The notes under the pieces: model-generated
The model's database searches: none
What the model was told of the DNA's origin: nothing
The model's input: only the letters and a program-made list of their open reading frames with translations
Program-made: the position numbers and the translations under genes
Virus genome (UHGV): UHGV-2104448
Source of the DNA: a virus
Direction: 5' to 3' (one strand)
DNA: 34,172 bases
In this document: piece by piece, positions 1 through 30,865 of the stretch
Layout: each line of letters starts with the position of its first letter
How positions within the stretch are numbered: the stretch's first letter is position 1

Positions 1-423
1 TTACGTGGGTAGGATCACTCTGTTCGGACCACTGACAAGAGCATACTTATATTCATCATCCAGTTTGATTACATTATAGCCACCATAGAAGGGGCCAAAA
101 AACGAAACCTTCAACGCTGCAGTTTTAGTATCTCCAGTAAAGTATGCTTTACCTTCGCTCTCGCTCCATTTATTTTTCGTTGGATCGTATCCACGGTTAA
201 GTACACGAATCCCTCCGTCGTTCCGTTTTCCATAAGTAGCGCTGACCTGTTCCAGACCACGTTCGAACCGGTTCTCGAGGCGAGCTATTTCATACCATTT
301 TCCGAGGTAGCGGTTGGCGTCAAAATTTGTAATCGGCTGCACACCTTTAGGTGGTGTCGGGGCCTTACATGCTATAAGAGTGAAAGAGAGTGCAATGCCA
401 GTCAACACAGGCCATAACTTCAT
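1..423 (-). CDS. Lipocalin-family outer-membrane lipoprotein (Blc-like)
   Basis: 140-aa ORF with an N-terminal signal peptide and lipobox (LIAC). Lipocalin motifs are present: NFDANRYLGKWYEIARLENRFERG and KVSFFGPFYGGYNVI. Stop codon lies at positions 1-3. Shorter at the C-terminus than E. coli Blc as I recall it. Confidence 0.8.
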   Translation of the reverse strand: MKLWPVLTGIALSFTLIACKAPTPPKGVQPITNFDANRYLGKWYEIARLENRFERGLEQVSATYGKRNDGGIRVLNRGYDPTKNKWSESEGKAYFTGDTKTAALKVSFFGPFYGGYNVIKLDDEYKYALVSGPNRVILPT

Positions 424-2749: not shown

Positions 2750-2768
2750 TTGGATGCACTACCATCAC

Positions 2769-3145: not shown

Positions 3146-3223
3146 AAAAACACATGATGTAACGTGATGCGATTTAATGATTTTGTAATTTTCGTATTTG
3201 ATAATTTTATGATGCTTTCAGCT

Positions 3224-3255
3224 ACGCCAGAATAATCGCTGGCGTTTTTCTTTTT
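3224..3255 (+). terminator. Intrinsic terminator-like hairpin between the AraC fragment and the holin
   Basis: 7-bp stem ACGCCAG / CTGGCGT with an 8-nt loop, followed by TTTTTCTTTTT. Confidence 0.5.
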
Positions 3256-6213: not shown

Positions 6214-6390
6214 ATGATGAATATTGAAAACTTAAAAACAAAAGCAGAAGCAGATATTTCTGAATATATAACAAAAAAAATTATTGAACTTAAGAAAAAG
6301 ACCGGGAAAGAAGTTACCAGTATTCAGTTTACCGCACGGGAAAAAATGACGGGTCTTGAAAGCTATGATGTCAAGATTAATTTAATCTGA
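6214..6390 (+). CDS. gnsB: GnsA/GnsB-family small protein
   Basis: 58 aa, MMNIENLKTKAEADISEYITKKIIELKKKTGKEVTSIQFTAREKMTGLESYDVKINLI, with RBS AAAAGAGGAA. Below the ORF-track size cut-off; found by reading the DNA. Confidence 0.7.
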   Translation: MMNIENLKTKAEADISEYITKKIIELKKKTGKEVTSIQFTAREKMTGLESYDVKINLI

Positions 6391-6534: not shown

Positions 6535-6966
6535 TTATGGTTTAGCGTGGTAAGATCTGTGTAGTTTTCTGGATGCTTTCAGTAAATAGTAATGAATTAT
6601 AAAGGTATAGTAATATCTTTTTTGTTCGTGGATATTTGTAACCCACCGAAAAACTCCTGCTTTAGCAAGGTTTCTTCTGTATTCCTGAAATGTGATCTCT
6701 CTGGATTTCAGCTTATTAGAGGTCGTTTCTATAAGATGCCTATCCTTTGAAAATTTGACAGACACAATGTTTTTTAGGCCCTTTAATAACACTGTATTAT
6801 CATTTTTTAATACAATATGAACATTCTCTGTGGCTAAATAGTAAATGTAATGTGAGACATTGTGACGTTTTAGCTCAGAATAAAACCATTGATAGTTTAA
6901 ATCGTTTCGAACTTTATCAAATATTTGTTTAAAAATGACTACCTGATCCATAGATAAACCTTCCAT
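6535..6966 (-). CDS. ydfO: DUF1398-family protein (YdfO-like)
   Basis: 143-aa ORF antisense to the flanking late genes. Matches the YdfO/YbcV family by recall. The true start may be the internal Met of MDQVVIF. Confidence 0.7.
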
Positions 6967-7389: not shown

Positions 7390-7625
7390 ATGATAATTAT
7401 TATCATTTTGTGGGTCCTTTCCGGCGATCCGACAGGTTACGGGGCGGCGACCTCGCGGGTTTTCGCTATTTATGAAAATTTTCCGGTTTAAGGCATTTCC
7501 GTTCTTCTTCGTCGTAACTTAATGTTTTTATTTAAAATACCCCCTGAAAAGAAAGGAAACGACAGGTGCTGAAAACGAGCTTTTGGGCCTCTGTCGTTTC
7601 CTTTCTCTGTTTTTGGCCGTGGAAT
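7390..7625 (+). other. Lambda-type cos site (cosQ, cosN, cosB)
   Basis: GGGCGGCGACCT at 7442-7453 is the lambda 12-nt cohesive end, preceded by …CCGACAGGTTACG (lambda right end). Inverted Nu1-binding R-site-like elements lie at 7551-7565 (GAAAGGAAACGACAG) and 7591-7605 (CTGTCGTTTCCTTTC), just upstream of the Nu1 start. Confidence 0.8.
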
Positions 7626-7630
7626 GAACA

Positions 7631-8150
7631 ATGGAAGTCAACAAAAAGCAGCTGGCTGACATTTTCGGTGCGAGTATCCGTACCATTCAGAACTGGCAGG
7701 AACAGGGAATGCCCGTTCTGCGAGGCGGTGGCAAGGGTAATGAGGTGCTTTATGACTCTGCCGCCGTTATAAGATGGTATGCCGAAAGGGATGCTGAAAT
7801 TGAGAACGAAAAGCTGCGCCGGGAAGTTGAAGAACTGCGGCAGGCCAGCGAGACAGATCTCCAGCCAGGGACTATTGAGTACGAACGCCATCGACTTACG
7901 CGTGCGCAGGCCGACGCACAGGAGCTGAAAAATGCCAGAGACTCCGCTGAAGTGGTGGAAACCGCATTCTGTACTTTCGTGCTGTCGCGGATCGCAGGTG
8001 AAATTGCCAGTATTCTCGACGGGATCCCCCTGTCGGTGCAGCGGCGTTTTCCGGAACTGGAAAACCGACATGTTGATTTCCTGAAACGGGATATCATCAA
8101 AGCCATGAACAAAGCAGCCGCGCTGGATGAACTGATACCGGGGTTGCTGA

Positions 8151-8176
<26 letters not shown>
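7631..8176 (+). CDS. nu1: Terminase small subunit (Nu1)
   Basis: 181 aa, MEVNKKQLADIFGASIRTIQNWQEQGMPVLRGGGKGNEVLYDSAAV…, near-identical to lambda Nu1 as recalled, including the N-terminal HTH. Confidence 0.9.
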
Positions 8177-11857
<3,681 letters not shown>

Positions 11858-11877
<20 letters not shown>

Positions 11878-13177
11878 TCTCCCGCATATTGCCAGCATGG
11901 CTTTTAATGAGCCGCTGATGCTTGAACCCGCCTATGCGCGGGTTTTCTTTTGTGCGCTTGCAGGCCAGCTTGGGATCAGCCGCCTGACGGATGCGGTGTC
12001 CGGCGACAGCCTGACTGCCCAGGAGGCACTCGCGACGCTGGCATTATCCGGTGATGATGACGGACCACGACAGGCCCGCAGTTATCAGGTCATGAACGGC
12101 ATCGCCGTGCTGCCGGTGTCCGGCACGCTGGTCAGCCGGACGCGGGCGCTGCAGCCGTACTCGGGGATGACCGGTTACAACGGCATTATCGCCCGTCTGC
12201 AACAGGCTGCCAGCGATCCGATGGTGGACGGCATTCTGCTCGATATGGACACGCCCGGCGGGATGGTGGCGGGGGCATTTGACTGCGCTGACATCATCGC
12301 CCGTGTGCGTGACATAAAGCCGGTATGGGCGCTGGCCAATGACATGAACTGCAGCGCAGGTCAGCTGCTTGCCAGTGCCGCCTCCCGGCGTCTGGTCACG
12401 CAGACCGCCCGGACAGGCTCCATCGGCGTCATGATGGCTCACAGTAATTACGGCGCTGCACTGGAGAAACAGGGCGTGGAAATCACGCTGATTTACAGCG
12501 GCAGCCATAAGGTGGATGGCAACCCCTACAGCCATCTACCGGATGATGTCCGGGAAACATTGCAGTCCCGGATGGATGCAACCCGCCGGATGTTTGCACA
12601 GAAGGTGTCGGCATATACCGGCCTGTCCGTGCAGGCTGTGCTGGATACCGAGGCTGCAGTGTACAGCGGTCAGGAGGCCATTGATGCCGGACTGGCTGAT
12701 GAACTTGTCAACAGCACCGATGCGATCACCGTTATGCGTGATGCACTGGATGCACGTAAATCCCGTCTCTCAGGAGGGCGAATGACCAAAGAGACTCAAT
12801 CAACAACTGTTTCAGCCACTGCTTCGCAGGCTGACGTTACTGACGTGGTGCCAGCGACGGAGGGCGAAAACGCCAGCGCGGCGCAGCCGGACGTGAACGC
12901 GCAGATCACCGCTGCGGTTGCGGCAGAAAACAGCCGCATTATGGGGATCCTCAACTGTGAGGAGGCTCACGGACGCGAAGAACAGGCCCGCGTGCTGGCA
13001 GAAACCCCCGGTATGACCGTGGAAACGGCCCGCCGCATTCTGGCAGCTGCACCACAGAGTGCACAGGCGCGCAGTGACACTGCGCTGGATCGTCTGATGC
13101 AGGGGGCACCGGCACCGCTGGCTGCAGGTAACCCGGCATCTGATGCCGTTAACGATTTGCTGAACACACCAGTGTAA
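11858..13177 (+). CDS. C: Head maturation protease / minor capsid protein C
   Basis: GTG start overlapping the B end. 439 aa beginning (M)TAELRNLPHIASMAFNEPL…, with a ClpP/S49-like protease core. Confidence 0.85.
12572..13177 (+). CDS. nu3: Scaffolding protein Nu3 (in-frame internal start within C)
   Basis: ATG at 12572 in the C frame (MDATRRMFAQKV…), placed by analogy with the lambda C/nu3 nested arrangement. Confidence 0.55.
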   Translation: MDATRRMFAQKVSAYTGLSVQAVLDTEAAVYSGQEAIDAGLADELVNSTDAITVMRDALDARKSRLSGGRMTKETQSTTVSATASQADVTDVVPATEGENASAAQPDVNAQITAAVAAENSRIMGILNCEEAHGREEQARVLAETPGMTVETARRILAAAPQSAQARSDTALDRLMQGAPAPLAAGNPASDAVNDLLNTPV

Positions 13178-13186
13178 GGGATGTTT

Positions 13187-13516
13187 ATGACGAGCAAAGA
13201 AACCTTTACCCACAACAACGCCACCAATACTGACCCGGCTCATACCGCAACCGCGCCCGGCGGATTGAGTGCGAAAGCGCCTGCAATGACCCCGCTGATG
13301 CTGGACACATCCACCCGTAAGCTGGTTGCGTGGGATGGCACCACCGACGGTGCTGCCGTTGGCATTCTTGCGGTTGCTGCTGACCAGACCAGCACCACAC
13401 TGACGTTCTACAAGTCCGGCACGTTCCGTTATGAGGATGTGCTCTGGCCGGAGGCTGCCAGCGACGAGACGAAAAAACGGACCGCGTTTGCCGGAACGGC
13501 AATCAGCATCGTTTAA
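13187..13516 (+). CDS. D: Head decoration protein D
   Basis: 109 aa, MTSKETFTH…[11 protein letters not shown]. The N-terminal approximately 20 residues differ from lambda gpD; the rest is co-linear. Confidence 0.85.
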
Positions 13517-13536
13517 CTTTACCCTTCATCACTAAA

Positions 13537-13558
13537 GGCCGCCTGTGCGGCTTTTTTT
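13537..13558 (+). terminator. Terminator-like hairpin between D and E (GCCGC-CUGU-GCGGC plus U7)
   Basis: GC stem with a 4-nt loop followed by TTTTTTT, 20 bp after the D stop. Confidence 0.45.
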
Positions 13559-13571
13559 ACGGGATTTTTTT

Positions 13572-14597
13572 ATGTCGATGTACACAACCGCCCAGCTGCT
13601 GGCGGCAAATGAGCAGAAATTTAAGTTTGATCCGCTGTTTCTGCGTCTCTTTTTCCGTGAGAGCTATCCCTTCACTACGGAGAAAGTCTATCTCTCACAA
13701 ATTCCGGGACTGGTAAACATGGCGCTGTACGTTTCGCCGATTGTTTCCGGTGAGGTTATCCGTTCCCGTGGCGGCTCCACCTCTGAATTTACGCCGGGAT
13801 ATGTCAAACCCAAGCATGAGGTGAATCCGCAGATGACCCTGCGTCGCCTGCCGGATGAAGATCCGCAGAATCTGGCGGACCCGGCTTACCGCCGCCGTCG
13901 CATCATCATGCAGAACATGCGTGACGAAGAGCTGGCCATTGCTCAGGTCGAAGAGATGCAGGCAGTTTCTGCCGTGCTCAAGGGCAAATACACCATGACC
14001 GGTGAAGCCTTCGATCCGGTTGAGGTGGATATGGGCCGCAGTGCGGCGAACAACATCACACAGTCCGGCGTCACGGAGTGGAGCAAGCGTGACAAGTCCA
14101 CGTATGACCCGACCGACGATATCGAAGCCTACGCGCTGAACGCCAGCGGTGTGGTGAATATCATCGTGTTTGACCCGAAAGGCTGGGCGCTGTTCCGTTC
14201 CTTCAAAGCCGTCAGGGAGAAGCTGGATACCCGTCGCGGCTCTCATTCCGAGCTGGAGACAGCGGTGAAAGACCTGGGCAAAGCGGTGTCCTATAAGGGA
14301 ATGTATGGCGATGTGGCCATCGTCGTGTATTCCGGACAGTACGTGGAAAACGGCGTCAAAAAGAACTTCCTGCCGGACAACACGATGGTGCTGGGGAACA
14401 CTCAGGCTCGCGGTCTGCGCACCTATGGCTGCATTCAGGATGCGGACGCACAGCGCGAAGGCATTAACGCCTCTGCCCGTTACCCGAAAAACTGGGTGAC
14501 CACCGGCGATCCGGCGCGTGAGTTCACCATGATTCAGTCAGCACCGCTGATGCTGCTGGCTGACCCTGATGAGTTCGTGTCCGTTCAACTGGCGTAA
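13572..14597 (+). CDS. E: Major capsid protein E
   Basis: 341 aa starting MSMYTTAQLLAANEQKFKFDPLFLRLFF…, co-linear with lambda gpE. The ORF-track start at 13545 is an upstream extension. Confidence 0.9.
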   Translation: MSMYTTAQLLAANEQKFKFDPLFLRLFFRESYPFTTEKVYLSQIPGLVNMALYVSPIVSGEVIRSRGGSTSEFTPGYVKPKHEVNPQMTLRRLPDEDPQNLADPAYRRRRIIMQNMRDEELAIAQVEEMQAVSAVLKGKYTMTGEAFDPVEVDMGRSAANNITQSGVTEWSKRDKSTYDPTDDIEAYALNASGVVNIIVFDPKGWALFRSFKAVREKLDTRRGSHSELETAVKDLGKAVSYKGMYGDVAIVVYSGQYVENGVKKNFLPDNTMVLGNTQARGLRTYGCIQDADAQREGINASARYPKNWVTTGDPAREFTMIQSAPLMLLADPDEFVSVQLA

Positions 14598-14638
14598 TCA
14601 TGGCCCTTCGGGGCCATTTTCTCTCTGTGGAGGAGTTC

Positions 14639-15037
14639 ATGACGAAAGATGAACTGATTGCCCGTCTTCAGGAGCTGGGTGAGCAACTGAACCGCGATGT
14701 CAGTTTGACGGGAACGAAAGAAGAACTGGCGCTTCGTGTGGCAGAGCTGGAAGAAGAGCTTGATGACACGGATGAAACTGCCGGTCAGGACACCCCTCTC
14801 AGCCGGGAAAATGTGCTGACCGGGCATGAAAATGAGGTGGTATCAGCGCAGCCGGATACCGTGATTCAGGATACGGCTGAACTGGTCACGGTCGTGGCAC
14901 TGGTGACGCTGCATACTGATGCACTTCACGCCACGCGGGATAAACCTGTGGCATTTGTGCTGCCGGGAACGGCGTTTCGTGTCTCTGCCGGTGTGGCAGC
15001 CGAAATGACAGAGCGCGGCCTGGCCAGAATGCAATAA
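14639..15037 (+). CDS. FI: DNA-packaging protein FI
   Basis: 132 aa, MTKDELIARLQELGEQLNRDVSLTGTKEELALRVAELEEELDD…, with RBS GGAGG. Confidence 0.8.
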   Translation: MTKDELIARLQELGEQLNRDVSLTGTKEELALRVAELEEELDDTDETAGQDTPLSRENVLTGHENEVVSAQPDTVIQDTAELVTVVALVTLHTDALHATRDKPVAFVLPGTAFRVSAGVAAEMTERGLARMQ

Positions 15038-15048
15038 CGGGAGGCGCT

Positions 15049-15402
15049 GTGGCTGATTTCGATAACCTGTTCGATGCTGCCATTGCCCGCGCCGATGAAA
15101 CGATACGCGGGTACATGGGAACGTCAGCCACCATGACATCCGGTGAGCAGTCAGGTGCGGTGATACGTGGTGTTTTTGATGACCCTGAAAATATCAGCTA
15201 TGCCGGACAGGGCGTGCGCGTTGAAGGCTCCAGCCCGTCCCTGTTTGTCCGGACTGATGATGCGCGGCAGCTGCGGCGTGGAGACACGCTGACCATCGGT
15301 GAGGAAAATTTCTGGGTAGATCGGGTTTCGCCGGATGATGGCGGAAGTTGTCATCTCTGGCTTGGACGGGGCGTACCGCCTGCCGTTAACCGTCGCCGCT
15401 GA
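15049..15402 (+). CDS. FII: Head-tail connector protein FII
   Basis: 117 aa, MADFDNLFDAAIARADETIRGYMGTSATMTSGEQSGAV…. Confidence 0.85.
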   Translation: MADFDNLFDAAIARADETIRGYMGTSATMTSGEQSGAVIRGVFDDPENISYAGQGVRVEGSSPSLFVRTDDARQLRRGDTLTIGEENFWVDRVSPDDGGSCHLWLGRGVPPAVNRRR

Positions 15403-15413
15403 AAGGGGGATGT

Positions 15414-15991
15414 ATGGTCATAAAAGGTCTTGAGCAGGCCGTTGAAAACCTCAGCCGTATCAGCAAAACGGCGGTGCCTGGTGCCGCCGCAATGGCCATT
15501 AACCGCGTTGCTTCATCCGCGATATCGCAGTCGGCGTCACAGGTTGCCCGTGAGACAAAGGTACGCCGGAAACTGGTAAAGGAAAGGGCCAGGCTGAAAA
15601 GGGCCACGGTCAAAAATCCGCAGGCCAGAATCAGGGTAACCGGGGGGATTTGCCCGTAATAAAGCTGGGTAACGCGCGGATTGTCCTGTCCCGACGCAGG
15701 CATCGTAAAAAGGGGCAGCGTTCAGCCCTGAAAGGTGGCGGCAGCGTGCTTGTGGTGGGAAACCGTCGTATTCCCGGCGCGTTTATTCAGCAACTGAAAA
15801 ATGGCCGCTGGCATGTCATGCAGCGTGTGGCCGGGAAAAACCGTTACCCCATTGATGTGGTGAAAATCCCGATGGCGGTGCCGCTGACCACGGCGTTTAA
15901 ACAGAATATTGAACGGATACGGCGTGAACGTCTTCCGAAAGAGCTGGGCTATGCGCTGCAGCATCAACTGAGAATGGTAATAAAGCGATGA
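15414..15991 (+). pseudogene. Z: Tail completion protein Z, reading frame split by a 1-nt frameshift
   Basis: Two overlapping ORFs (15414..15659 in frame 0, 15650..15991 in frame 2) together cover a gpZ-like sequence. The total span is 578 nt (not a multiple of 3), one short of the 579 nt of lambda Z as recalled. The shift lies at about 15630-15660, beside a G6 run at 15642-15647. Confidence 0.7.
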
Positions 15992-16383
15992 AACATACTG
16001 AACTCCGTGCAGCCGTACTGGATGCACTGGAGAAGCATGACACCGGGGCGACGCTTTTTGATGGTCGCCCCGCTGTTTTTGATGAGGCGGATTTTCCGGC
16101 AATTGCCGTTTATCTCACCGGCGCTGAATACACGGGCGAAGAGCTGGACAGCGATACCTGGCAGGCGGAGCTGCATATTGAAGTTTTCCTGCCTGCTCAG
16201 GTGCCGGATTCAGAGCTGGATTCGTGGATGGAGTCCCGGATTTATCCGGTGATGAGCGATATCCCGGCACTGTCAGATTTGATCACCAGTATGGTGGCCA
16301 GCGGCTATGACTACCGGCGCGACGATGATGCGGGCCTGTGGAGTTCAGCCGATCTGACTTATGTCATTACCTATGAAATGTGA
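15988..16383 (+). CDS. U: Tail terminator protein U
   Basis: 131 aa, [43 protein letters not shown]…. Confidence 0.85.
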
Positions 16384-16390
16384 GGACGCT

Positions 16391-17131
16391 ATGCCTGTAC
16401 CAAATCCAGTAATGCCGGTGAAAGGGGCCGGGACCACACTGTGGGTTTATAAGGGGAACGGTGACCCTTATGCGAACCCGCTTTCAGACGTTGACTGGTC
16501 GCGTCTGGCTAAAGTTAAAGACCTGACGCCCGGCGAACTGACCGCTGAGTCCTATGACGACAGCTATCTCGATGATGAAGATGCGGACTGGACTGCGACC
16601 GGGCAGGGGCAGAAATCTGCCGGAGATACCAGCTTCACGCTGGCGTGGATGCCCGGAGAGCAGGGGCAGCAGGCGCTGCTGGCGTGGTTTAATGAAGGGG
16701 ATACCCGAGCCTATAAAATCCGCTTCCCGAATGGCACGGTCGATGTGTTCCGCGGCTGGGTCAGCAGTATCGGTAAGGCGGTGACGGCGAAGGAAGTGAT
16801 CACCCGCACGGTGAAGGTCACCAATGTGGGCCGTCCGTCGATGGCAGAAGATCACAGCACGGTCACAGCGGCAACCGGCATGACCGTGACGCCTGCCAGC
16901 ACCTCGGTGGTGAAAGGGCAGAGCACCACGCTGACCGTGGCATTCCAGCCGGAAGGCGCAACCGACAAGAGCTTCCGTGCGGTGTCAGCGGATAAAACAA
17001 AAGCCACCGTGTCGGTCAGTGGTATGACCATCACCGTGAAAGGTGTTGCTGCAGGCAAGGTCAACATTCCGGTCGTATCCGGTAATGGTGAACTTGCTGC
17101 GGTTGCAGAAATCAACGTCACCGCCAGTTAA
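16391..17131 (+). CDS. V: Major tail tube protein V
   Basis: 246 aa, [22 protein letters not shown]…, with a C-terminal Ig-like domain. Confidence 0.9.
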
Positions 17132-17146
17132 TCCGGAGAGTCAGCG

Positions 17147-17569
17147 ATGTTCCTGAAAACCGAATCATTTGAACATAACGGTGTGACCGTCACGCTTTCT
17201 GAACTGTCAGCCCTGCAGCGTATTGAGCATCTCGCCCTGATGAAACGGCAGGCAGAACAGGCGGAGTCAGACAGCAACCGGAAGTTTACTGTGGAAGACG
17301 CCATCAGAACCGGTGCTTGTGTGGTGGCGATGTCCCTGTGGCATAACCATCCGCAGAAGACGCAGATGCCTTCCATGAATGAAGCCGTTAAACAGATTGA
17401 GCAGGAAGTGCTTACCACCTGGCCTACAGAGGCAATTTCTCATGCTGAAAACGTGGTGTACCGGCTGTCCGGTATGTATGAGTTTGTGGTGAATGATGCC
17501 CCTGAACAGGCAGAGGACGCCGGGCCTGCAGAGCCTGTTTCTGCGGGAAAGTGTTCGACGGTGAGCTGA
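17147..17569 (+). CDS. G: Tail assembly chaperone G
   Basis: 140 aa, MFLKTESFEHNGVTVTLSELSALQRIEHLALMKRQ…. Confidence 0.85.
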   Translation: MFLKTESFEHNGVTVTLSELSALQRIEHLALMKRQAEQAESDSNRKFTVEDAIRTGACVVAMSLWHNHPQKTQMPSMNEAVKQIEQEVLTTWPTEAISHAENVVYRLSGMYEFVVNDAPEQAEDAGPAEPVSAGKCSTVS

Positions 17570-17985
17570 GTTTTGCCCTGAAACTGGCGCGCGAGATGGG
17601 GCGACCCGACTGGCGTGCCATGCTTGCCGGGATGTCATCCACGGAGTATGCCGACTGGCACCGCTTTTACAGTACCCATTATTTTCATGATGTTCTGCTG
17701 GATATGCACTTTTCCGGGCTGACGTACACCGTGCTCAGCCTGTTTTTCAGCGATCCGGATATGCATCCGCTGGATTTCAGTCTGCTGAACCGGCGCGAGG
17801 CTGACGAAGAGACTGAAGATGATGTGCTGATGCAGAAAGCGGCAGGGCTTGCCGGAGGCGTTCGTTTTGGCCCGGACGGGAATGAAGTTATCCCCGCTTC
17901 CCCGGATGTGGCGGACATGACGGAGGATGACGTAATGCTGATGACAGTATCAGAAGGGATCGCAGGAGGAGTCCGGTATGGCTGA
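17147..17985 (+). CDS. G-T: Tail assembly chaperone G-T fusion (programmed -1 ribosomal frameshift)
   Basis: The T reading frame (17551..17985) is the -1 frame relative to G and has no plausible independent start. The slippery heptamer G GGA AAG lies at 17545-17551 in the correct G frame. Confidence 0.75.
17545..17551 (+). promoter_or_regulatory. -1 programmed frameshift slippery site GGGAAAG (G to G-T)
   Basis: X XXY YYZ heptamer in the G frame, 6 codons before the G stop. Confidence 0.7.
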
Positions 17986-20557
17986 ACCGGTAGGCGATCT
18001 GGTCGTTGATTTAAGTCTGGATGCGGCCAGATTTGACGAGCAGATGGCCAGAGTCAGGCGTCATTTTTCCGGTACGGAAAGTGATGCGAAAAAAACAGCG
18101 GCAGTCGTTGAACAGTCGATGAACCGGCAGGCGCTGGCTGCACAGAAAGCGGGAATTTCCGTCGGGCAGTATAAAGCCGCCATGCGTATGCTGCCTGCGC
18201 AGTTCACTGACGTGGCCACGCAGCTTGCAGGCGGGCAAAGTCCGTGGCTGATCCTGCTGCAACAGGGGGGTCAGGTGAAGGACTCCTTCGGCGGGATGAT
18301 CCCCATGTTCCGGGGGCTTGCCGGTGCGATCACCCTGCCGATGGTGGGGGCTACCTCGCTGGCGGTGGCGACCGGAGCGCTGGCGTATGCCTGGTATCAG
18401 GGCAACTCAACCCTGTCCAATTTCAACAAAACGCTGGTCCTTTCCGGCAATCAGGCGGGACTGACGGCAGATCGTATTCTGGCCCTGTCCAGAGCCGGGC
18501 AGGCGGCAGGGCTGACGTTTAACCAGACCAGCGAGTCACTGACGGCGCTGGTGAATGCCGGTGTGCGTGGTGGTGAGCAGTTTGAGGCGATCAGCCAGAG
18601 TGTGGCGCGTTTCTCCTCTGCATCCGGCGTGGAGGTGGACAAGGTCGCTGAAGCCTTCGGGAAGCTGACCACAGACCCGACGTCGGGACTGACAGCGATG
18701 GCACGTCAGTTCCATAACGTGACGGCGGAGCAGATTGCGTATGTTGCTCAGTTGCAGCGTTCCGGAGATGAAGCCGGGGCATTGCAGGCGGCGAACGAGG
18801 CCGCAACGAAAGGGTTTGATGACCAGACCCGCCGCCTGAAAGAGAACATGGGCACGCTGGAGACCTGGGCAGACAGGACAGCACGGGCATTCAAATCCAT
18901 GTGGGATTCGGTGCTGGATATTGGTCGCCCGGACACTGCCCAGGGAATGCTGGAGAAAGCAGAAAAGGCTTTTGATGAGGCGGACAAAAAATGGCAGTGG
19001 TATCAGAGCCGAAGCCACCGGCGCGGTAAAACCTCAGCATTTCTTGCCAATCTCCGGGGAGCATGGGAGGACAGAGCGAATGCGCAACTTGGGCTTTCAG
19101 CCGCCACGTTGCAGGCCGATCTTGAAAAGGCCAGAGAGATGGCAGCAAAGGACTGGGCCGAGTCTGAGGCATCACGGCTGAAATATACCGAAGAGGCGCA
19201 GAAGGCTTACGAACGCCTGCAGACGCCGCTGGAGAAATATACCGCCCGTCAGGAAGAACTGAACAAGGCACTGAAAGACGGGAAAATCCTGCAGGCAGAT
19301 TACAACACGCTGATGGCGGCGGCGAAAAAGGATTATGAAGCGACGCTGAAAAAGCCGAAACAGTCCGGCGTGAAAGTGTCTGCGGGCGATCGTCAGGAAG
19401 ACAGTGCTCATGCTGCCCTGCTGACGCTTCAGGCTGAACTCCGGACGCTGGAGAAGCATGCCGGAGCAAATGAGAAAATCAGCCAGCAGCGCCGGGATTT
19501 GTGGAAGGCGGAGAGTCAGTTCGCGGTACTGGAGGAGGCGGCGCAACGTCGCCAGCTGTCCGCACAGGAGAAATCCCTGCTGGCGCATAAAGATGAGACG
19601 CTGGAGTACAAACGCCAGCTGGCTGCACTTGGCGACAAGGTTACGTATCAGGAGCGCCTGAACGCGCTGGCGCAGCAGGCGGATAAGTTCGCACAGCAAC
19701 AACGGGCAAAACGGGCAGCCATTGAGGCGAAAAACCGGGGGCTTACTGACCGGCAGGCAGCGCGGGAAGCCACAGAACAGCGCCTGAAGGAACAGTATGG
19801 CGATAATTCGCTGGCGCTGAATAACGTCATGTCAGAGCAGAAAAAGACCTGGGCGGCTGAAGACCAGCTTCGCGGGAGCTGGATGGCAGGCCTCAGGTCC
19901 GGCTGGAGTGAGTGGGAAGAGAGCGCCACGGACAGTATGTCGCAGGTTAAAAGTGCAGCCACGCAGACCTTTGATGGTATTGCGCAGAATATGGCGGCGA
20001 TGCTGACCGGCAGTGAGCAGAACTGGCGCAGCTTCACCCGTTCCGTGCTGTCCATGATGACAGAAATTCTGCTTAAGCAGGCAATGGTGGGGATTGTCGG
20101 GAGTATCGGTAGCGCCATTGGCGGGGCTGTTGGTGGCGGCGCATCCGCATCAGGCGGTACAGCCATTCAGGCCGCTGCGGCGAAATTCCATTTTGCAACC
20201 GGAGGATTTACGGGAACCGGCGGCAAATATGAGCCAGCGGGGATTGTTCACCGTGGTGAATTTGTCTTCACGAAGGAGGCAACCAGCCGAATTGGTGTCG
20301 GTAACCTGTACCGCCTGATGCGGGGCTATGCGGAAGGTGGTTATGTGGGCGGTGCCGGAAGTCCGGCGCAGATGCGGCGGGCTGAAGGCATTAATTTTAA
20401 TCAGAACAATCACGTGGTGATTCAGAACGACGGTACGAATGGTCTGCCAGGTCCACAGATGATGAAGGCAGTGTATGACATGGCCCGCAAGGGTGCCCGT
20501 GATGAAATTCAGGCACAGATGCGCGATGGTGGTCTGTTCTCCGGAGGTGGACGATGA
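17978..20557 (+). CDS. H: Tail tape-measure protein H
   Basis: 859 aa, coiled-coil-rich, with Gly-rich segments near the C-terminus. Start overlaps the T end. Confidence 0.9.
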   Translation: MAEPVGDLVVDLSLDAARFDEQMARVRRHFSGTESDAKKTAAVVEQSMNRQALAAQKAGISVGQYKAAMRMLPAQFTDVATQLAGGQSPWLILLQQGGQVKDSFGGMIPMFRGLAGAITLPMVGATSLAVATGALAYAWYQGNSTLSNFNKTLVLSGNQAGLTADRILALSRAGQAAGLTFNQTSESLTALVNAGVRGGEQFEAISQSVARFSSASGVEVDKVAEAFGKLTTDPTSGLTAMARQFHNVTAEQIAYVAQLQRSGDEAGALQAANEAATKGFDDQTRRLKENMGTLETWADRTARAFKSMWDSVLDIGRPDTAQGMLEKAEKAFDEADKKWQWYQSRSHRRGKTSAFLANLRGAWEDRANAQLGLSAATLQADLEKAREMAAKDWAESEASRLKYTEEAQKAYERLQTPLEKYTARQEELNKALKDGKILQADYNTLMAAAKKDYEATLKKPKQSGVKVSAGDRQEDSAHAALLTLQAELRTLEKHAGANEKISQQRRDLWKAESQFAVLEEAAQRRQLSAQEKSLLAHKDETLEYKRQLAALGDKVTYQERLNALAQQADKFAQQQRAKRAAIEAKNRGLTDRQAAREATEQRLKEQYGDNSLALNNVMSEQKKTWAAEDQLRGSWMAGLRSGWSEWEESATDSMSQVKSAATQTFDGIAQNMAAMLTGSEQNWRSFTRSVLSMMTEILLKQAMVGIVGSIGSAIGGAVGGGASASGGTAIQAAAAKFHFATGGFTGTGGKYEPAGIVHRGEFVFTKEATSRIGVGNLYRLMRGYAEGGYVGGAGSPAQMRRAEGINFNQNNHVVIQNDGTNGLPGPQMMKAVYDMARKGARDEIQAQMRDGGLFSGGGR

Positions 20558-20883
20558 AGACCTTCCGCTGGAAAGTGAAACCCGGTATGGATGTGGCTTC
20601 GGCCCCTTCCGTCAGGAAAGTGCGCTTTGGTGATGGCTATTCCCAGCGAGCGCCTGCCGGGCTGAATGCCGACCTGAAAACGTACAGCGTGACGCTTTCT
20701 GTTCCCCGTTGGGAGGCCACGGCGCTGGAGTCGTTTCTGGCTGAGCACGGGGGCTGGAAAGCCTTTCTGTGGACGCCGCCTTATGAGTGGCGGCAGATAA
20801 AGGTGACCTGCGCAAAATGGTCGTCGCGGGTCAGTATGCTGCGTGTTGAGTTCAGCGCAGAGTTTGAACAGGTGGTGAACTGA
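20554..20883 (+). CDS. M: Tail tip protein M
   Basis: 109 aa, MKTFRWKVKPGMDVASAPSVRKVRFGDGYSQRAPAGLNADLKTY…. Confidence 0.85.
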   Translation: MKTFRWKVKPGMDVASAPSVRKVRFGDGYSQRAPAGLNADLKTYSVTLSVPRWEATALESFLAEHGGWKAFLWTPPYEWRQIKVTCAKWSSRVSMLRVEFSAEFEQVVN

Positions 20884-21581
20884 TGCAGGATATCCGGCAG
20901 GAAACACTGAATGAATGCACCCGTGCGGAGCAGTCGGCCAGCGTGGTGCTCTGGGAAATCGACCTGACAGAGGTCGGTGGAGAACGTTATTTTTTCTGTA
21001 ATGAGCAGAACGAAAAAGGTGAGCCGGTCACCTGGCAGGGGCGACAGTATCAGCCGTATCCCATTCAGGGGAGTGGTTTTGAACTGAATGGCAAAGGCAC
21101 CAGTACGCGCCCCACACTGACGGTTTCTAACCTGTACGGTATGGTCACCGGGATGGCGGAAGATCTGCAGAGTCTGGTCGGTGGAACGGTGGTCCGGCGT
21201 AAGGTTTACGCCCGTTTTCTGGATGCGGTGAACTTCGTCAACGGAAACAGTGGCGCCGATCCGGAGCAGGAGGTGATCAGCCGCTGGCGCATTGAGCAGT
21301 GCAGCGAACTGAGCGCGGTGAGTGCCTCTTTTGTACTGTCCACGCCGACGGAAACGGATGGCGCTGTTTTTCCGGGACGTATCATGCTGGCCAACACCTG
21401 CACCTGGACCTATCGCGGTGACGAGTGCGGTTATAGCGGTCCGGCTGTCGCGGATGAATATGACCAGCCAACGTCCGATATCACGAAGGATAAATGCAGC
21501 AAATGCCTGAGCGGTTGTAAGTTCCGCAATAACGTCGGCAACTTTGGCGGCTTCCTTTCCATTAACAAACTTTCGCAGTAA
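20883..21581 (+). CDS. L: Tail tip protein L
   Basis: 232 aa with a C-terminal Cys cluster (CGYSGP…CSKCLSGC), lambda gpL-like. Confidence 0.85.
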   Translation: MQDIRQETLNECTRAEQSASVVLWEIDLTEVGGERYFFCNEQNEKGEPVTWQGRQYQPYPIQGSGFELNGKGTSTRPTLTVSNLYGMVTGMAEDLQSLVGGTVVRRKVYARFLDAVNFVNGNSGADPEQEVISRWRIEQCSELSAVSASFVLSTPTETDGAVFPGRIMLANTCTWTYRGDECGYSGPAVADEYDQPTSDITKDKCSKCLSGCKFRNNVGNFGGFLSINKLSQ

Positions 21582-21586
21582 ATCCC

Positions 21587-22330
21587 ATGACACAGACAGA
21601 ATCAGCGATTCTGGCGCACGCCCGGCGATGTGCGCCAGCGGAGTCGTGCGGCTTCGTGGTAAGCACGCCGGAGGGGGAAAGATATTTCCCCTGCGTGAAT
21701 ATCTCCGGTGAGCCGGAGGCGTATTTCCGTATGTCGCCGGAAGACTGGCTGCAGGCAGAAATGCAGGGTGAGATTGTGGCGCTGGTCCACAGCCACCCCG
21801 GTGGTCTGCCCTGGCTGAGTGAGGCCGACCGGCGGCTGCAGGTGCAGAGTGATTTGCCGTGGTGGCTGGTCTGCCGGGGGACGATTCATAAGTTCCGCTG
21901 TGTGCCGCATCTCACCGGGCGGCGCTTTGAGCACGGTGTGACGGACTGTTACACACTGTTCCGGGATGCTTATCATCTGGCGGGGATTGAGATGCCGGAC
22001 TTTCATCGTGAGGATGACTGGTGGCGTAACGGCCAGAATCTCTATCTGGATAATCTGGAGGCGACGGGGCTGTATCAGGTGCCGTTGTCAGCGGCACAGC
22101 CGGGCGATGTGCTGCTGTGCTGTTTTGGTTCATCGGTGCCGAATCACGCCGCAATTTACTGCGGCGACGGCGAGCTGCTGCACCATATTCCTGAACAACT
22201 GAGCAAACGAGAGAGGTACACCGACAAATGGCAGCGACGCACACACTCCCTCTGGCGTCACCGGGCATGGCGCGCATCTGCCTTTACGGGGATTTACAAC
22301 GATTTGGTCGCCGCATCGACCTTCGTGTGA
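21587..22330 (+). CDS. K: Tail tip assembly protein K (JAMM/MPN plus NlpC/P60 domains)
   Basis: 247-aa ORF. A JAMM-type H-x-H-x7-S-x2-D motif is present in HSHPGGLPWLSEAD. The C-terminal half is NlpC/P60-like with a candidate active-site Cys in GVTDCYTLF. The classical lambda annotation starts at the internal Met at 21731 (199 aa). Confidence 0.8.
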   Translation: MTQTESAILAHARRCAPAESCGFVVSTPEGERYFPCVNISGEPEAYFRMSPEDWLQAEMQGEIVALVHSHPGGLPWLSEADRRLQVQSDLPWWLVCRGTIHKFRCVPHLTGRRFEHGVTDCYTLFRDAYHLAGIEMPDFHREDDWWRNGQNLYLDNLEATGLYQVPLSAAQPGDVLLCCFGSSVPNHAAIYCGDGELLHHIPEQLSKRERYTDKWQRRTHSLWRHRAWRASAFTGIYNDLVAASTFV

Positions 22331-22899
22331 AAACGGGGGCTGAAGCCATCCGGGCACTGGCCACACAGCTCCCGGCGTTTCGTCAGAAACTGAGCGACGG
22401 CTGGTATCAGGTACGGATTGCCGGGCGGGACGTCAGCACGTCCGGGTTAACGGCGCAGTTACATGAGACTCTGCCTGATGGCGCTGTGATTCATATTGTT
22501 CCCAGAGTCGCCGGGGCCAAGTCAGGTGGCGTATTCCAGATTGTCCTGGGGGCTGCCGCCATTGCCGGATCATTCTTTACCGCCGGAGCCACCCTTGCAG
22601 CATGGGGGGCAGCCATTGGGGCCGGTGGTATGACCGGCATCCTGTTTTCTCTCGGTGCCAGTATGGTGCTCGGTGGTGTGGCGCAGATGCTGGCACCGAA
22701 AGCCAGAACTCCCCGTACACAGACAACGGATAACGGCAAACAGAACACCTATTTCTCCTCACTGGATAACATGGTTGCCCAGGGCAATGTTCTGCCGGTT
22801 CTGTACGGTGAAATGCGCGTGGGGTCACGCGTGGTTTCTCAGGAGATCAGCACGGCAGACGAAGGGGACGGTGGTCAGGTTGTGGTGATTGGTCGCTGA
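22228..22899 (+). CDS. I: Tail tip assembly protein I
   Basis: 223 aa with an N-terminal ubiquitin-like region and a Gly/Ala-rich hydrophobic middle. Overlaps the K 3' end by 103 nt, as in lambda. Confidence 0.85.
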   Translation: MAATHTLPLASPGMARICLYGDLQRFGRRIDLRVKTGAEAIRALATQLPAFRQKLSDGWYQVRIAGRDVSTSGLTAQLHETLPDGAVIHIVPRVAGAKSGGVFQIVLGAAAIAGSFFTAGATLAAWGAAIGAGGMTGILFSLGASMVLGGVAQMLAPKARTPRTQTTDNGKQNTYFSSLDNMVAQGNVLPVLYGEMRVGSRVVSQEISTADEGDGGQVVVIGR

Positions 22900-22956
22900 T
22901 GCAAAATGTTTTATGTGAAACCGCCTGCGGGCGGTTTTGTCGTTTATGGAGCGTGA

Positions 22957-26358
<3,402 letters not shown>

Positions 26359-26376
26359 ATTTTATAACCCAGAACG

Positions 26377-26402
26377 GGCGTCAGAAATGACGCCTTTTTT
26401 AT
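26377..26402 (+). terminator. Intrinsic terminator after J (GGCGUCA-GAAA-UGACGCC plus U-run)
   Basis: Perfect 7-bp stem with a GAAA loop followed by TTTTTTATT, 19 bp after the J stop. Confidence 0.6.
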
Positions 26403-26424
26403 TGCAGAAAAGCGAGAGGTAATT

Positions 26425-27024
26425 ATGCGTAAACTTTATGCCGCCATTTTGTCCGCAGCCATCTGTCTGGCCGTATCCGGTGCGCCTGCATGGGCGTCTG
26501 AACATCAGTCCACGCTGAGCGCGGGCTATCTTCATGCCTCGACGAACGTTCCCGGCAGCGATGATCTTAACGGGATTAACGTGAAATACCGTTATGAGTT
26601 TACGGACACACTGGGGCTGGTGACGTCATTCAGCTATGCAGGAGACAAGAATCGCCAGCTGACCCGTTACAGCGATACCCGCTGGCATGAAGACTCCGTT
26701 CGTAACCGCTGGTTCAGCGTGATGGCGGGGCCGTCTGTACGCGTGAATGAATGGTTCAGCGCGTATGCGATGGCGGGTGTGGCTTACAGCCGTGTGTCGA
26801 CTTTCTCCGGGGATTATCTCCGCGTAACTGACAACAAGGGGAAAACGCACGATGTGCTGACCGGAAGTGATGACGCTTGCCACAGTAACACCTCTCTGGC
26901 GTGGGGAGCTGGCGTGCAGTTTAACCCGACCGAATCCGTGGCCGTTGATGTCGCTTATGAAGGCTCCGGCAGTGGCAACTGGCGCACTGACGGGTTCATC
27001 GTGGGTGTCGGTTATAAGTTCTGA
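26425..27024 (+). CDS. lom: Lom outer-membrane protein (Ail/Lom/OmpX family)
   Basis: 199 aa with a signal peptide and a beta-barrel ending in the C-terminal Phe (…GFIVGVGYKF). Lambda lom-like. Confidence 0.85.
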   Translation: MRKLYAAILSAAICLAVSGAPAWASEHQSTLSAGYLHASTNVPGSDDLNGINVKYRYEFTDTLGLVTSFSYAGDKNRQLTRYSDTRWHEDSVRNRWFSVMAGPSVRVNEWFSAYAMAGVAYSRVSTFSGDYLRVTDNKGKTHDVLTGSDDACHSNTSLAWGAGVQFNPTESVAVDVAYEGSGSGNWRTDGFIVGVGYKF

Positions 27025-27051
27025 TTAGCCAGGTAACACAGTGTTATGACA

Positions 27052-27077
27052 GCCCGCCGGTTCAGGCGGGCTTTTTT
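27052..27077 (+). terminator. Intrinsic terminator after lom (GCCCGCC stem plus U6)
   Basis: GCCCGCC-GGTTCA-GGCGGGC followed by TTTTTT. Confidence 0.55.
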
Positions 27078-27082
27078 GTGGG

Positions 27083-30000
27083 GTGAATATGGCAGTAAAG
27101 ATTTCAGGTGTACTGAAAGACGGTGCAGGTAAACCGGTACAGAACTGCACAATCCAGCTGAAAGCAAAACGTAACAGCACCACGGTGGTGGTGAACACGC
27201 TGGCCTCAGAAAATCCGGATGAAGCCGGGCGTTACAGCATGGACGTTGAGTACGGTCAGTACAGCGTTATTCTGTTGGTGGAAGGATTCCCGCCGTCACA
27301 TGCCGGGACCATCACCGTGTATGAAGATTCTCAACCCGGTACGCTGAATGATTTTCTCGGTGCCATGACGGAGGATGATGCCCGTCCGGAGGCACTGCGC
27401 CGTTTTGAACTGATGGTGGAAGAGGTGGCGCGTAACGCGTCCGCAGTGGCACAGAACACGGCAGCCGCGAAGAAGTCAGCCAGCGATGCCGGCACATCAG
27501 CCCGTGAGGCGGCAACCCATGCGACTGATGCTGCAGGCTCAGCACGCGCAGCCAGCACGTCAGCCGGACAGGCCGCTTCGTCGGCTCAGTCAGCGTCTTC
27601 CAGCGCAGGAACGGCATCAACAAAGGCCACTGAAGCATCAAAAAGTGCTGCCGCTGCAGAGTCCTCAAAAAGCGCGGCGGCCACCAGTGCCGGTGCGGCG
27701 AAAACGTCAGAAACGAATGCTGCAGTGTCACAAAAATCTGCAGCTACTTCTGCATCCACCGCGACCACGAAAGCGTCAGAAGCTGCCACCTCAGCCCGGG
27801 ATGCGGCGGCCTCAAAAGAGGTAGCGAAATCATCAGAAACGAACGCATCATCAAGTGCCAGTAGTGCAGCTTCCTCGGCAACGGCGGCAGGAAATTCCGC
27901 GAAGGCCGCAAAAACGTCTGAGACGAATGCGGATAACAGCGCACAGGCGGCAGCAGACTCACAAACTGCATCGGCAAACTCCGCGACAGCAGCCAAAAAA
28001 TCAGAAACCAACGCGAAAAATAGCGAGGCAGCAGCAAAGAGCAGCGAAACAAACGCTAAAGCCAGCGAAACTAATGCTAAATCCAGTGAAACAAACGCGG
28101 CGAAATCTGCGGCGGACGCACTTAATTATCGCAACCAGGCCCAGGGTATTGTTGGTACTAACATCGGTTTGGGATCATCACCGCGTGATTGCTCTGACAT
28201 CTCAGGAAATCCATCAGGTTATATTGGCTTTATGCGCATCATGGCTGATGCAACAGGTTTCCCGTCTATTGCATCCGGTGAAAGCAGTCTTACGGGGTTT
28301 ATTAGTCAGGTAGATGGAACTCCAGCGTATACAGGTGTATTTCAGGGATGGACTACTCGCTCGCTTTATACCTATCGCTGGAGTCCGACAACAGGCCCGC
28401 AATGGACACGCCACGCTCGCAAAAATGAAGTGGACCGTCTTGACCAATGGAATAGCGAAACATGGTTATATAACCATGATAAATCCATGCGCCTGGGTTT
28501 AACCGGATCAACATGGGGGTGTTACAGCGACACACAAAAAAAATGGATACCACTTGATGTTTCTCATGGTGGCACTGGCGCAAATAGCCTTGATGACGCC
28601 AAAACTAATTTGCAAATCCCTGAGGGTGGATTAACAAAAGCGATGACCCTTAATGCCCCTGGTGGTGCAGTGGATGGCAAATACTACCCTGTCATAATAG
28701 ACACATCCGCAATGAATGGGAGCGGTGCCATGTTATGTCCTGTTGAAATAAAAACAGCAGGAGGTCCGGCATCAAATCCGCTTAATAGTAACTCATTTTT
28801 TGGGTTCATTCGATGTGGTGGCTGGAGTGACGTTCGCGATGTGGCTTACGGGTCATTTGTTTGCTATGAAAAAAATGAACTCGGGATACTTTGCATTAAA
28901 GCGTCGCAAAGAGATTATGCGCAGCATGTAGCTTTCTACATCCATAAAAGCGCTTTTCCTGTCGTTGTGCAAACTGGCTACAAGGCAAAAGTTAAGGTTC
29001 CAACAGAAGACTACGTAATTGGTGACAACGGGGTTAGATATAAGTTTGGTGTATCAACGTCAACGGAGGATAACGACAAGAACTTTGTTAAAAATGTTCT
29101 TGACTTCACTGGCGGTGAACATGGCTTCTACAGCAACCTTCCGTTCAGACAAGGGGTGTCAGAAAGGATTGCATTAACAAATGGCCTGAGTTTTGACAAA
29201 AATTTTACCGTCACTATTCCTATATTTGTAAACAATGGTCAGATTAAAGCAACACAATCTTTCACCGCGTACGGTACGGACGCTTCAAACAGAACATTTG
29301 TTTCTCAAAGATTACAATCCGAAGGAGGTCCGGTTGTCGATCAAACTGAACTAAGGGCCGCTAACGCTTCTGGTGAAATTGTTGTCAGGGACATAAATAA
29401 TTCAGGGAACAGTAAGTTCTTTAATTTTAACCTTGATGGTACCTTCAGTTCTTATCAGGGATTGGTTGTTCACACAGGGCAAAACTGGAGCACTCAACAT
29501 ACAGAGAATGTAAATAAGTTTAAGCCAATAGCAGGGAGCGCAGGCGGTCCTGACGGAACAATGGTTGTTGGCGGATTCCATGCTCAATTTAGCGGTAATT
29601 ACGTCACACAATTCGCCGGTCGCAACTCCAAATTTTGGGCAAGAAGCTTTGAGGCTGGGGTTGATAAGGGATGGAAACGACTATTAACAGTAGACGATCT
29701 CAATTCATCTACCGATCTTGCTGTCAGGTCATTAACCACATCTAACCCGGTAAAATCTGGCGGAGGGCGGATTGATGTCCTTGGAAGCACGTCAGATTAT
29801 AGCAAAATGGATTGCTTTGTACGTGGGTTTGATAGCACCGGTAATTCTCTCGCGTGGGCGTTGGGTTCATCAGTCGGCGTAAGTAAGATGCTGTCGCTAA
29901 AAAATTTCTTTAGCGGAGCTGAGATACTGTTAAATGGTAATGACGGCGCGGTTCAACTCAAAACAGGTGCTGTTAACGGGGCTAAAGCGCACGCGCTCAC

Positions 30001-30691
30001 TATCAACAAGGATGAGGTTAACTCAACTGTTGATTTAACTCTTACAAAACAAACAGGGACTGGCAATCGTTTTGTTTTACAGAACTTAGGTAATACAGAA
30101 CTATCATTTGCCGCAAAAGTATGGGGATCAAGTGATCGACAAAACGTTTTTGAGGTTGGAACGTCTGCTGCGTATCTGTTTTATGCGCAAAAAACGTCAG
30201 CAGGCCAGTTGTTTGATGTAAATGGCGCTATTAATTGCACAACGCTGAATCAGTCATCAGACCGCGACCTTAAAGACGATATTCTCGTTATCAGCGACGC
30301 GACGAAAGCAATCCGTAAAATGAACGGATACACCTACACGCTCAGGGAAAACGGGATGCCTTATGCTGGCGTTATTGCACAGGAAGTAATGGAGGCGATA
30401 CCAGAAGCTGTAGGATCGTTTACTCATTACGGTGAAGAGTTGCAGGGACCAACGGTTGACGGCAATGAATTACGTGAAGAAACACGTTATCTGAATGTTG
30501 ACTACGCCGCCGTGACGGGGTTACTTGTTCAGGTCGCCCGTGAAACAGATGGTCGCGTTACCGCGCTGGAAGAGGAAAACATAACGCTACGTAAAAATCT
30601 GGCAACAGCAGGCACCCGGATCAGCACTCTGGAAAATCAGGTAAGCGAACTGGTTGCACTTGTCGGGCAGTTAACAGGAAGCGAACATTGA
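27083..30691 (+). CDS. stf: Side tail fibre protein, chimeric: lambda Stf-like N-terminus, divergent distal region, C-terminal intramolecular-chaperone (peptidase S74-like) domain
   Basis: 1202 aa. The N-terminal 130 aa or so (MAVKISGVLKDGAGKPVQNCTIQLKA…) are lambda Stf-like, followed by Ala/Ser-rich SETNA repeats. An HGGTGA fibre motif is present. The last 145 aa or so begin with the S-D-x-x-L-K motif (SSDRDLKDD at about 30254) and end in a coiled coil, typical of self-cleaving intramolecular chaperone domains. Confidence 0.85.
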   Translation: MNMAVKISGVLKDGAGKPVQNCTIQLKAKRNSTTVVVNTLASENPDEAGRYSMDVEYGQYSVILLVEGFPPSHAGTITVYEDSQPGTLNDFLGAMTEDDARPEALRRFELMVEEVARNASAVAQNTAAAKKSASDAGTSAREAATHATDAAGSARAASTSAGQAASSAQSASSSAGTASTKATEASKSAAAAESSKSAAATSAGAAKTSETNAAVSQKSAATSASTATTKASEAATSARDAAASKEVAKSSETNASSSASSAASSATAAGNSAKAAKTSETNADNSAQAAADSQTASANSATAAKKSETNAKNSEAAAKSSETNAKASETNAKSSETNAAKSAADALNYRNQAQGIVGTNIGLGSSPRDCSDISGNPSGYIGFMRIMADATGFPSIASGESSLTGFISQVDGTPAYTGVFQGWTTRSLYTYRWSPTTGPQWTRHARKNEVDRLDQWNSETWLYNHDKSMRLGLTGSTWGCYSDTQKKWIPLDVSHGGTGANSLDDAKTNLQIPEGGLTKAMTLNAPGGAVDGKYYPVIIDTSAMNGSGAMLCPVEIKTAGGPASNPLNSNSFFGFIRCGGWSDVRDVAYGSFVCYEKNELGILCIKASQRDYAQHVAFYIHKSAFPVVVQTGYKAKVKVPTEDYVIGDNGVRYKFGVSTSTEDNDKNFVKNVLDFTGGEHGFYSNLPFRQGVSERIALTNGLSFDKNFTVTIPIFVNNGQIKATQSFTAYGTDASNRTFVSQRLQSEGGPVVDQTELRAANASGEIVVRDINNSGNSKFFNFNLDGTFSSYQGLVVHTGQNWSTQHTENVNKFKPIAGSAGGPDGTMVVGGFHAQFSGNYVTQFAGRNSKFWARSFEAGVDKGWKRLLTVDDLNSSTDLAVRSLTTSNPVKSGGGRIDVLGSTSDYSKMDCFVRGFDSTGNSLAWALGSSVGVSKMLSLKNFFSGAEILLNGNDGAVQLKTGAVNGAKAHALTINKDEVNSTVDLTLTKQTGTGNRFVLQNLGNTELSFAAKVWGSSDRQNVFEVGTSAAYLFYAQKTSAGQLFDVNGAINCTTLNQSSDRDLKDDILVISDATKAIRKMNGYTYTLRENGMPYAGVIAQEVMEAIPEAVGSFTHYGEELQGPTVDGNELREETRYLNVDYAAVTGLLVQVARETDGRVTALEEENITLRKNLATAGTRISTLENQVSELVALVGQLTGSEH

Positions 30692-30865
30692 TATCCTTCA
30701 AGCCCTGAAGGAGGCTGTTCCTGGTACGTTCAGACTGTTGTTGAGCTGGAAATCGCAACGGAGGAAGAAACTTCGTTGCTGGAAGTCTGGAAAAAGTATC
30801 GGGTGTTGCTGAACCGTGTTAATACATCAGTAGTACCGGATATTGAATGGCCAGCACTGCCGTAG
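30692..30865 (+). pseudogene. 3' relic of a tail fibre assembly gene (tfa), no start codon
   Basis: In frame directly after the stf stop: …[44 protein letters not shown]. This is the conserved C-terminal signature of lambda-type Tfa proteins. Confidence 0.6.

Follow-up and report, generated by a model that had tools for sequence, protein, structure and literature searches.

In a Qin-type defective prophage of Escherichia coli, the tail completion gene Z is split by a lineage-specific 1-nt deletion, which we interpret as ordinary pseudogenisation (probability roughly 0.88). The lesion lies in a 34,172-nt stretch, UHGV virus genome UHGV-2104448, which was analysed at its full length and is called the window here. 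The evidence comes from the alignment of Z with its homologues, from the prophage in which it sits, and from the recurrence of the deletion in other assemblies.

The ORF list places two overlapping plus-strand ORFs in the Z region, at 15414..15659 (81 aa, starting with ATG) and 15650..15991 (113 aa, starting with TTG). They overlap by 10 nt and sit between FII (15049-15402) and U (15988-16383). Against the 190-position Pfam profile Minor_tail_Z, the N-terminal fragment covers positions 1-74 (E=3e-27) and the C-terminal fragment positions 79-190 (E=7e-47), bearing out the split that an initial annotation of this DNA had described. The same annotation had counted the Z span as one nucleotide short of a multiple of three; from 15414 to 15991 it is indeed 578 nt, one less than 579, and a three-way alignment with the Z genes of lambda and mEp332 contained a single gap in 579 columns, at column 224. 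Alignments against CX12, AH04, MY203L1 and Z1322HEC0005 showed this same single gap. Codon 76 (Val) has lost one T, from GTT to GT, between 15637 and 15638, such that GGGTTAACC in the homologues becomes GGGTAACC at 15634-15641 of the window. In the wider context the homologues read CAGGGTTAACCGGGGGG (lambda, CAAAGTTAACCGGGGGG) and the window reads CAGGGTAACCGGGGGG.

A G6 run begins 4 nt downstream of the deletion. The initial annotation had put the frameshift between 15630 and 15660 beside this run, had named an alignment with lambda Z as a check, and had said that reads with one more G, restoring a single 192-codon ORF, would refute it. The gap falls inside that interval and the alignment did reveal a single-base loss, but the lost base is a T outside the run, and an added G would be the wrong base. 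The run comprises six Gs in lambda, mEp332, CX12 and the window, and has the same length in every intact homologue aligned. The T belongs to a 2-base run, TT, that forms the midpoint of the 8-bp palindrome GGTTAACC. Restoring it in silico yielded a 192-aa protein identical to the Z protein of CX12 (WP_001543785.1) and different from lambda gpZ at 5 of 192 residues. With a 701-nt query around Z, 108 phage records matched; every match listed is 702 nt long on the record side, and this length is shared by the best hits in a set of 3,979 complete-genome E. coli records.

The locus keeps the profile match and the FII-Z-U-V position of the Z family, and lacks the uninterrupted ORF of ~192 codons. 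The -1 frame is open from 15554, and its earliest start codon is the TTG at 15650. With no more than 75 of 192 residues ahead of the break, loss of Z function can be inferred, and the window Z would accordingly be a pseudogene of the gpZ family and not a functional member. A search for a solved gpZ structure gave no PDB match, and gpZ is unresolved in the lambda cryo-EM studies. The features of the window are collected in Table 1.

Table 1. Features of the window discussed in the text (position 1 is the first nucleotide of the 34,172-nt stretch).
Feature	Position	Strand	Remarks
IS3 right inverted repeat, last 17 nt	1..17	+	Equals CX12 locus 10001-10017, directly after the IS3 transposase CDS
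Lipocalin remnant without 3' end	18-423	-	Abuts IS3; match stops at profile position 107/146
IS1 transposase pseudogene	2055-2749	+	From collinear CX12 annotation; inserted in the AraC-type HTH cargo gene
AraC-type gene, 3' remnant	2765-3162	+	Pfam HTH_18/HTH_AraC on 2750-3145
ydfO (DUF1398)	6535..6951	-	1-nt deletion: C lost at 6600/6601 (+ strand)
cosN GGGCGGCGACCT, exact	7442-7453		Upstream of nu1
nu1/nohA, A, W, B, C, D, E, FI, FII	7631..15402	+	Intact; CX12 CDS boundaries
Predicted Z pseudogene, N-terminal fragment	15414..15659	+	Residues 1-75 authentic Z, then TGGICP; TAA at 15657-15659
1-nt deletion site	15637..15638	+	Alignment gap
G6 run	15642..15647	+	Length unchanged, not the lesion
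Predicted Z pseudogene, C-terminal part	15638..15991	+	-1 frame, codons 77-192; Pfam match
U, V, G, T, H, M, L, K, I, J, lom, stf	15988..30691	+	Intact tail genes
V	16391-17131		
G/T slippery heptamer GGGAAAG	17545-17551		
pinQ	30963-31553	-	Layout as in CX12, AH04 and K-12
ydfJ remnant without 5' end	32889..34172	+	Right-hand Qin boundary; CX12, AH04 and K-12 annotations

Sequence comparison identifies the window as an allele of the cryptic prophage Qin at the rspB/ydfJ locus. All 34,172 bases are collinear, at 99.6%, with a CX12 region bounded by rspB and a truncated ydfJ, and also with AH04 and related strains. The right end carries the truncated ydfJ together with pinQ, ydfK and ynfT, the late-region genes are shared with Qin (the NCBI annotation of the CX12 region uses the K-12 Qin names rrrQ, rzpQ, cspI, ynfN, gnsB, ydfO, ynfO, nohA, pinQ and ydfK), and the left rspB/intQ junction is present in CX12 and AH04, outside the window. 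Apart from Z, the genes from nu1 to J, as well as lom and stf, are all open, without internal stops, and as long as the annotated CDSs of CX12; most of these lengths are also those of lambda. The initial annotation had called everything from nu1 to J otherwise intact. This is true of the morphogenesis module, whereas the prophage as a whole is damaged, with an IS3 end at 1-17 and an IS1 insertion.

Some features of the late region are recorded here in their own right. In the region 27089-30865, the side tail fibre gene stf is 1200 codons long and encodes a Peptidase_S74 (intramolecular chaperone) domain at its C-terminal end. Behind it lie only a 126-nt tfa remnant (~30740-30865) and then pinQ, the Pin-invertible fibre cassette having seemingly been replaced or truncated. 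Gene D (13187-13516) has an N-terminal patch at 13212-13230 that is 3 nt shorter than in four relatives, where it encodes THYQPLGNSDP (109 versus 110 aa). This patch looks like a short recombination tract, and similar private patches are found in H (18081-18419) and J/lom (25013-26700).

K-12 Qin resembles the window in its right boundary (pinQ, ydfK, ynfT and the ydfJ remnant) and in the order holin, rrrQ, rzpQ, cspI, ynfQ, ynfR, ynfN, gnsB, ydfO, ynfO, nohA. In MG1655, however, nohA is followed by a truncated stf and A to J are deleted (K-12 locus 10403-11885), whereas the window keeps the full nu1-J, lom and stf (7631-30691, ~23 kb). Conversely, K-12 Qin retains Q (ydfT), relBE and the dicBF region, where the closest relatives of the window have IS3 instead. 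Opposite halves of this prophage have been eroded in different strains. Closest to the window are the Alberta isolates CX12, CX08, AH02, AH04 and CT01, which share its IS3 junction, IS1 insertion and tfa remnant; they differ in having Z and ydfO intact, and short recombination patches in D, H and J/lom set the window apart from them. A lesion confined to the relative CX12 was also seen, in gnsB: its A8 run is A7 there (16264-16389) and the gene is truncated, while the window (~6266-6273), AH04 and K-12 have A8 and an intact gnsB of 57 aa.

The left part of the window records further decay. MY203L1 and Z1322HEC0005 lack an IS3 at this place and match the window only from position 18 onwards, and the IS3 junction is base for base that of CX12 and AH04. 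These two strains have int-xis-exo', then IS3, then lipocalin', and immunity, replication, toxin-antitoxin and Q are all gone; in relatives that have decayed less, the gene order is cro, replication genes, hokD, rem, ydfU, Q, lipocalin, ybgA, the AraC-type gene and holin. The junction shared with CX12 and AH04 suggests that the early region and Q are absent from the lineage of the window too. The AraC-type gene that IS1 interrupts is intact, at 237 aa, in Z1322HEC0005 and in one further relative locus.

Between the expected Q site and the holin, the window (1-3162) carries cargo genes for a lipocalin (Blc-like), a YbgA-type protein and an AraC-type regulator, a cassette that is widespread in complete Qin-like prophages. 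The YbgA-type gene has 2-thiouracil desulfurase and DUF1722 domains, and its allele is on record in 264 blocks. A YbgA look-up for the left side of the IS3 returned contigs of other, more complete prophages, the allele being widespread, and was set aside.

A second private 1-nt deletion lies in ydfO, where a C is lost from TTATCAAAGG (the window reads TTATAAAGG), and the last 19 residues are replaced. None of the top matches among complete E. coli genomes, K-12 among them, has this deletion, but the metagenome contig ERZ27235172 does. This second deletion fits the same picture of decay as that in Z. Compared with four relatives, the window differs by five isolated private SNPs, three short recombination patches and the two private 1-nt deletions, an indel-to-SNP ratio that is unable to separate error from relaxed selection.

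Carriers of the Z deletion were found only through an exact-protein look-up of the 81-aa N-terminal fragment, which is present on nine contigs of other assemblies (ENA metagenome, Logan assemblies of SRA runs, and JGI/IMG). Three of the nine were examined, as assemblies. ERZ27235172 (ENA, a 95-kb contig) was 100% identical to the window over the 20.2 kb compared, SRR9333244 (Logan) was 100% identical over 5.9 kb, and ERZ28602868 (ENA, LUND18-1 scaffold) was 99.994% identical over 17.4 kb, with one SNP at 18955. None of the three alignments has a gap, which means that each contig shares the T deletion. ERZ27235172 and SRR9333244 possibly come from the same sample; ERZ28602868, with its extra SNP, is the only clearly separate genome among the three.

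In a search with a 61-mer centred on the lesion, the deletion allele was absent from 5,426 complete E. coli genomes: 1,372 E. coli records matched, none at 99% or above, and the best matches were all 62 nt long at 98.4%. Exact DNA-pattern searches of GTDB representatives, IMG/VR and JGI metagenomes likewise gave no match to the deletion allele; the intact allele, used as a positive control, was found on at least 120 IMG/VR contigs. The local context is intact in more than 1,000 complete E. coli genomes. Because the deletion allele is absent from those collections, it marks one lineage.

The same observations bear on whether the deletion is real. A sequencing or assembly error would mean that the true genome has an intact 192-codon Z from which the sequencer or assembler dropped a base. 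No consensus error is commoner in long-read data than the single-base deletion, the window has its second private 1-nt deletion at 6600 in ydfO, and some public split-Z assemblies combine a G6 to G5 change with many split genes (E, U, H). The allele is, moreover, missing from all complete RefSeq E. coli genomes. Absence from databases alone fits either a private mutation or an error; recurrence in other assemblies settled the choice. Identical Z and ydfO deletions occur in assemblies of other samples whose contig naming styles differ, one of them with a SNP elsewhere, and no other gene is broken from nu1 to stf. The homopolymer error that the initial annotation had offered as one explanation predicts a changed run length and no recurrence in independent data, but the length of the G run has not changed, the base was lost from a TT dinucleotide outside it, and the deletion recurs in assemblies of other samples made with other assemblers. 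Since the same context is intact in thousands of assemblies (at least 120 viral contigs and more than 1,000 complete E. coli genomes among them), a systematic context error is not credible. We conclude that the T deletion is a genuine, inherited allele of one lineage, and that a one-off sequencing error is very unlikely.

Even a real deletion could leave Z active if ribosomes or RNA polymerase bypassed it. A -1 shift on G6 by ribosomal or transcriptional slippage, programmed or leaky, would give a 192-aa Z with the substitutions N76T and R77G, a product near wild type. The -1 frame is open well before the 0 frame ends at 15659, the 0-frame stop comes 10 nt downstream of G6, and the tRNA-Gly on the second GGG could slip back by one base and still pair perfectly. 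Yet among thousands of homologues not one is split, each having Z as a single ORF, and the 0-frame context ACC GGG GGG ATT (C_GG.G_GG.A) does not fit the canonical heptamer X_XXZ_ZZN. In E. coli, motifs of the GGN type are among those least prone to shifting; tetramers without a stimulator stay at background (~0.15% versus 0.11%), and G_GG.G_GG.U without a stimulator gives 0.018% (PMC4066793). Nor was a downstream structure found, as the 80 nt after G6 (15648-15727) fold at -21.1 kcal/mol, which is not more stable than shuffled sequences (z = +0.59; 150 of the 200 shuffles did equally well or better). Six Gs are also a short run for efficient RNA-polymerase slippage. The slippery motif, the stimulatory structure and the conserved two-frame arrangement of a programmed -1 site are all lacking, and the deliberate slippage that the initial annotation had ranked last is contradicted on each count; we regard recoding at G6 as highly improbable. 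The chance is just as slim that the lesion is leaky, with occasional -1 slippage restoring the doubly substituted Z. If it were, expression of the late genes, as might be driven in trans by a co-resident lambdoid prophage, could still yield some infectious tails, since a virion probably needs only a few copies of gpZ. Most improbable of all is an active two-chain Z, assembled from the N-terminal 75 residues and a C-terminal chain whose translation restarts at TTG 15650. The 10-nt overlap of the ORFs makes termination-reinitiation geometrically possible, and the G run could serve as a weak Shine-Dalgarno element; G-rich motifs gave low-level -1-frame initiation in reporters (PMC4066793). Against such a split, the Pfam Z family is one 190-position domain with the break inside it, and no homologue is so organised. 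The G run ends 2 nt before the TTG, a spacing too short for efficient initiation. The unrelated Z lesions of other lineages (an amber codon at Q70, G7, and an added A) form a pattern of random decay.

Those lesions came from eight broken-Z loci of public assemblies, which were aligned with Z at ~2657-3246 in each. Three of the eight have G5 in place of G6, in assemblies with many other split genes, and these cases are probably errors. One has G7 with intact neighbours, one an extra A, and one several single-base deletions; in the remaining two a CAG to TAG change creates a nonsense codon at Gln70. G6 may be a hot spot, either of mutation or of sequencing error. Broken Z genes also recur in protein records: the protein collection has 2,623 blocks with the 81-aa C-terminal Z ORF called in the window, an ORF that the O157:H7 EDL933 annotation named as a tail component of prophage CP-933X. 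We conclude that broken Z is common, and that the T deletion of the window is one more independent lesion in a frequently decaying gene.

Pseudogenisation by deletion would have proceeded as follows. One T was lost from the Val76 GTT of Z in one natural lineage, probably by replication slippage on the TT at the centre of GGTTAACC. Translation would then leave the Z frame after residue 75 and stop at the TAA, with the remaining 116 codons in the -1 frame and lacking a proper start. The prophage was most likely non-functional already and Z no longer under selection, which would explain why the deletion arose and persisted. This order of events is our inference; the data cannot order the Z lesion relative to loss of the early region. 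With the late operon cut off from Q and the late promoter, the Z lesion is best read as neutral decay, and because all other structural genes are intact, any period of relaxed selection must have been short. The recent inactivating mutation favoured by the initial annotation agrees with an allele that is private to one lineage, recurs in other assemblies and, once repaired, equals the Z of CX12; that reading slightly mislocated the lesion but ranked its cause correctly.

Lambda particles without gpZ look normal and are mostly non-infectious (PMC11099176). The expectation in the initial annotation that the prophage could not make infectious tails fits this biology, but it is largely moot in an element that is already a remnant. 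The Z frameshift results from decay and is not the lesion that disables the phage. Matching E. coli genomes have a median of two Z-homologous places each, and Z could conceivably come in trans in polylysogens. Virion proteins can be supplied in trans by co-resident prophages in O157 Sakai (PMC2669165).

Several known systems are comparable. Lambda Z (PF06763) occupies the same FII-U position and is ~97-98% identical in nucleotide sequence, but in lambda and in all matched sequenced lambdoid phages it is a single 192-codon ORF, whereas the window Z is split. Laboratory lambda, compared with Ur-lambda, has a single frameshift that splits the tail-related gene stf within an otherwise intact module (PMC10721106, PMC12617516). 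Unlike Z, whose loss leaves particles mostly non-infectious (PMC11099176), stf is dispensable for plaque formation. The lambdoid prophages of O157:H7 Sakai likewise have morphogenesis or regulatory genes hit by point lesions and by IS insertions, and most of them are predicted to be defective (Asadulghani et al. 2009, PMC2669165). Sakai differs in strain background and in its prophages.

The Z lesion is not novel, and belongs to prophage decay of a known type. For annotation, Z should be entered as a pseudogene with a frameshift, and the element should be listed among defective Qin-type prophages rather than inducible phages of the lambda kind; beyond annotation the importance is slight. The Z and ydfO deletions together would make a convenient marker, in metagenome assemblies, of one E. 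coli lineage that is without a complete RefSeq genome and for which one sample label suggests a human-gut study. The element also offers a snapshot of decay in which the regulatory and early regions would have been lost first, through IS elements, and point lesions in the structural module would have followed.
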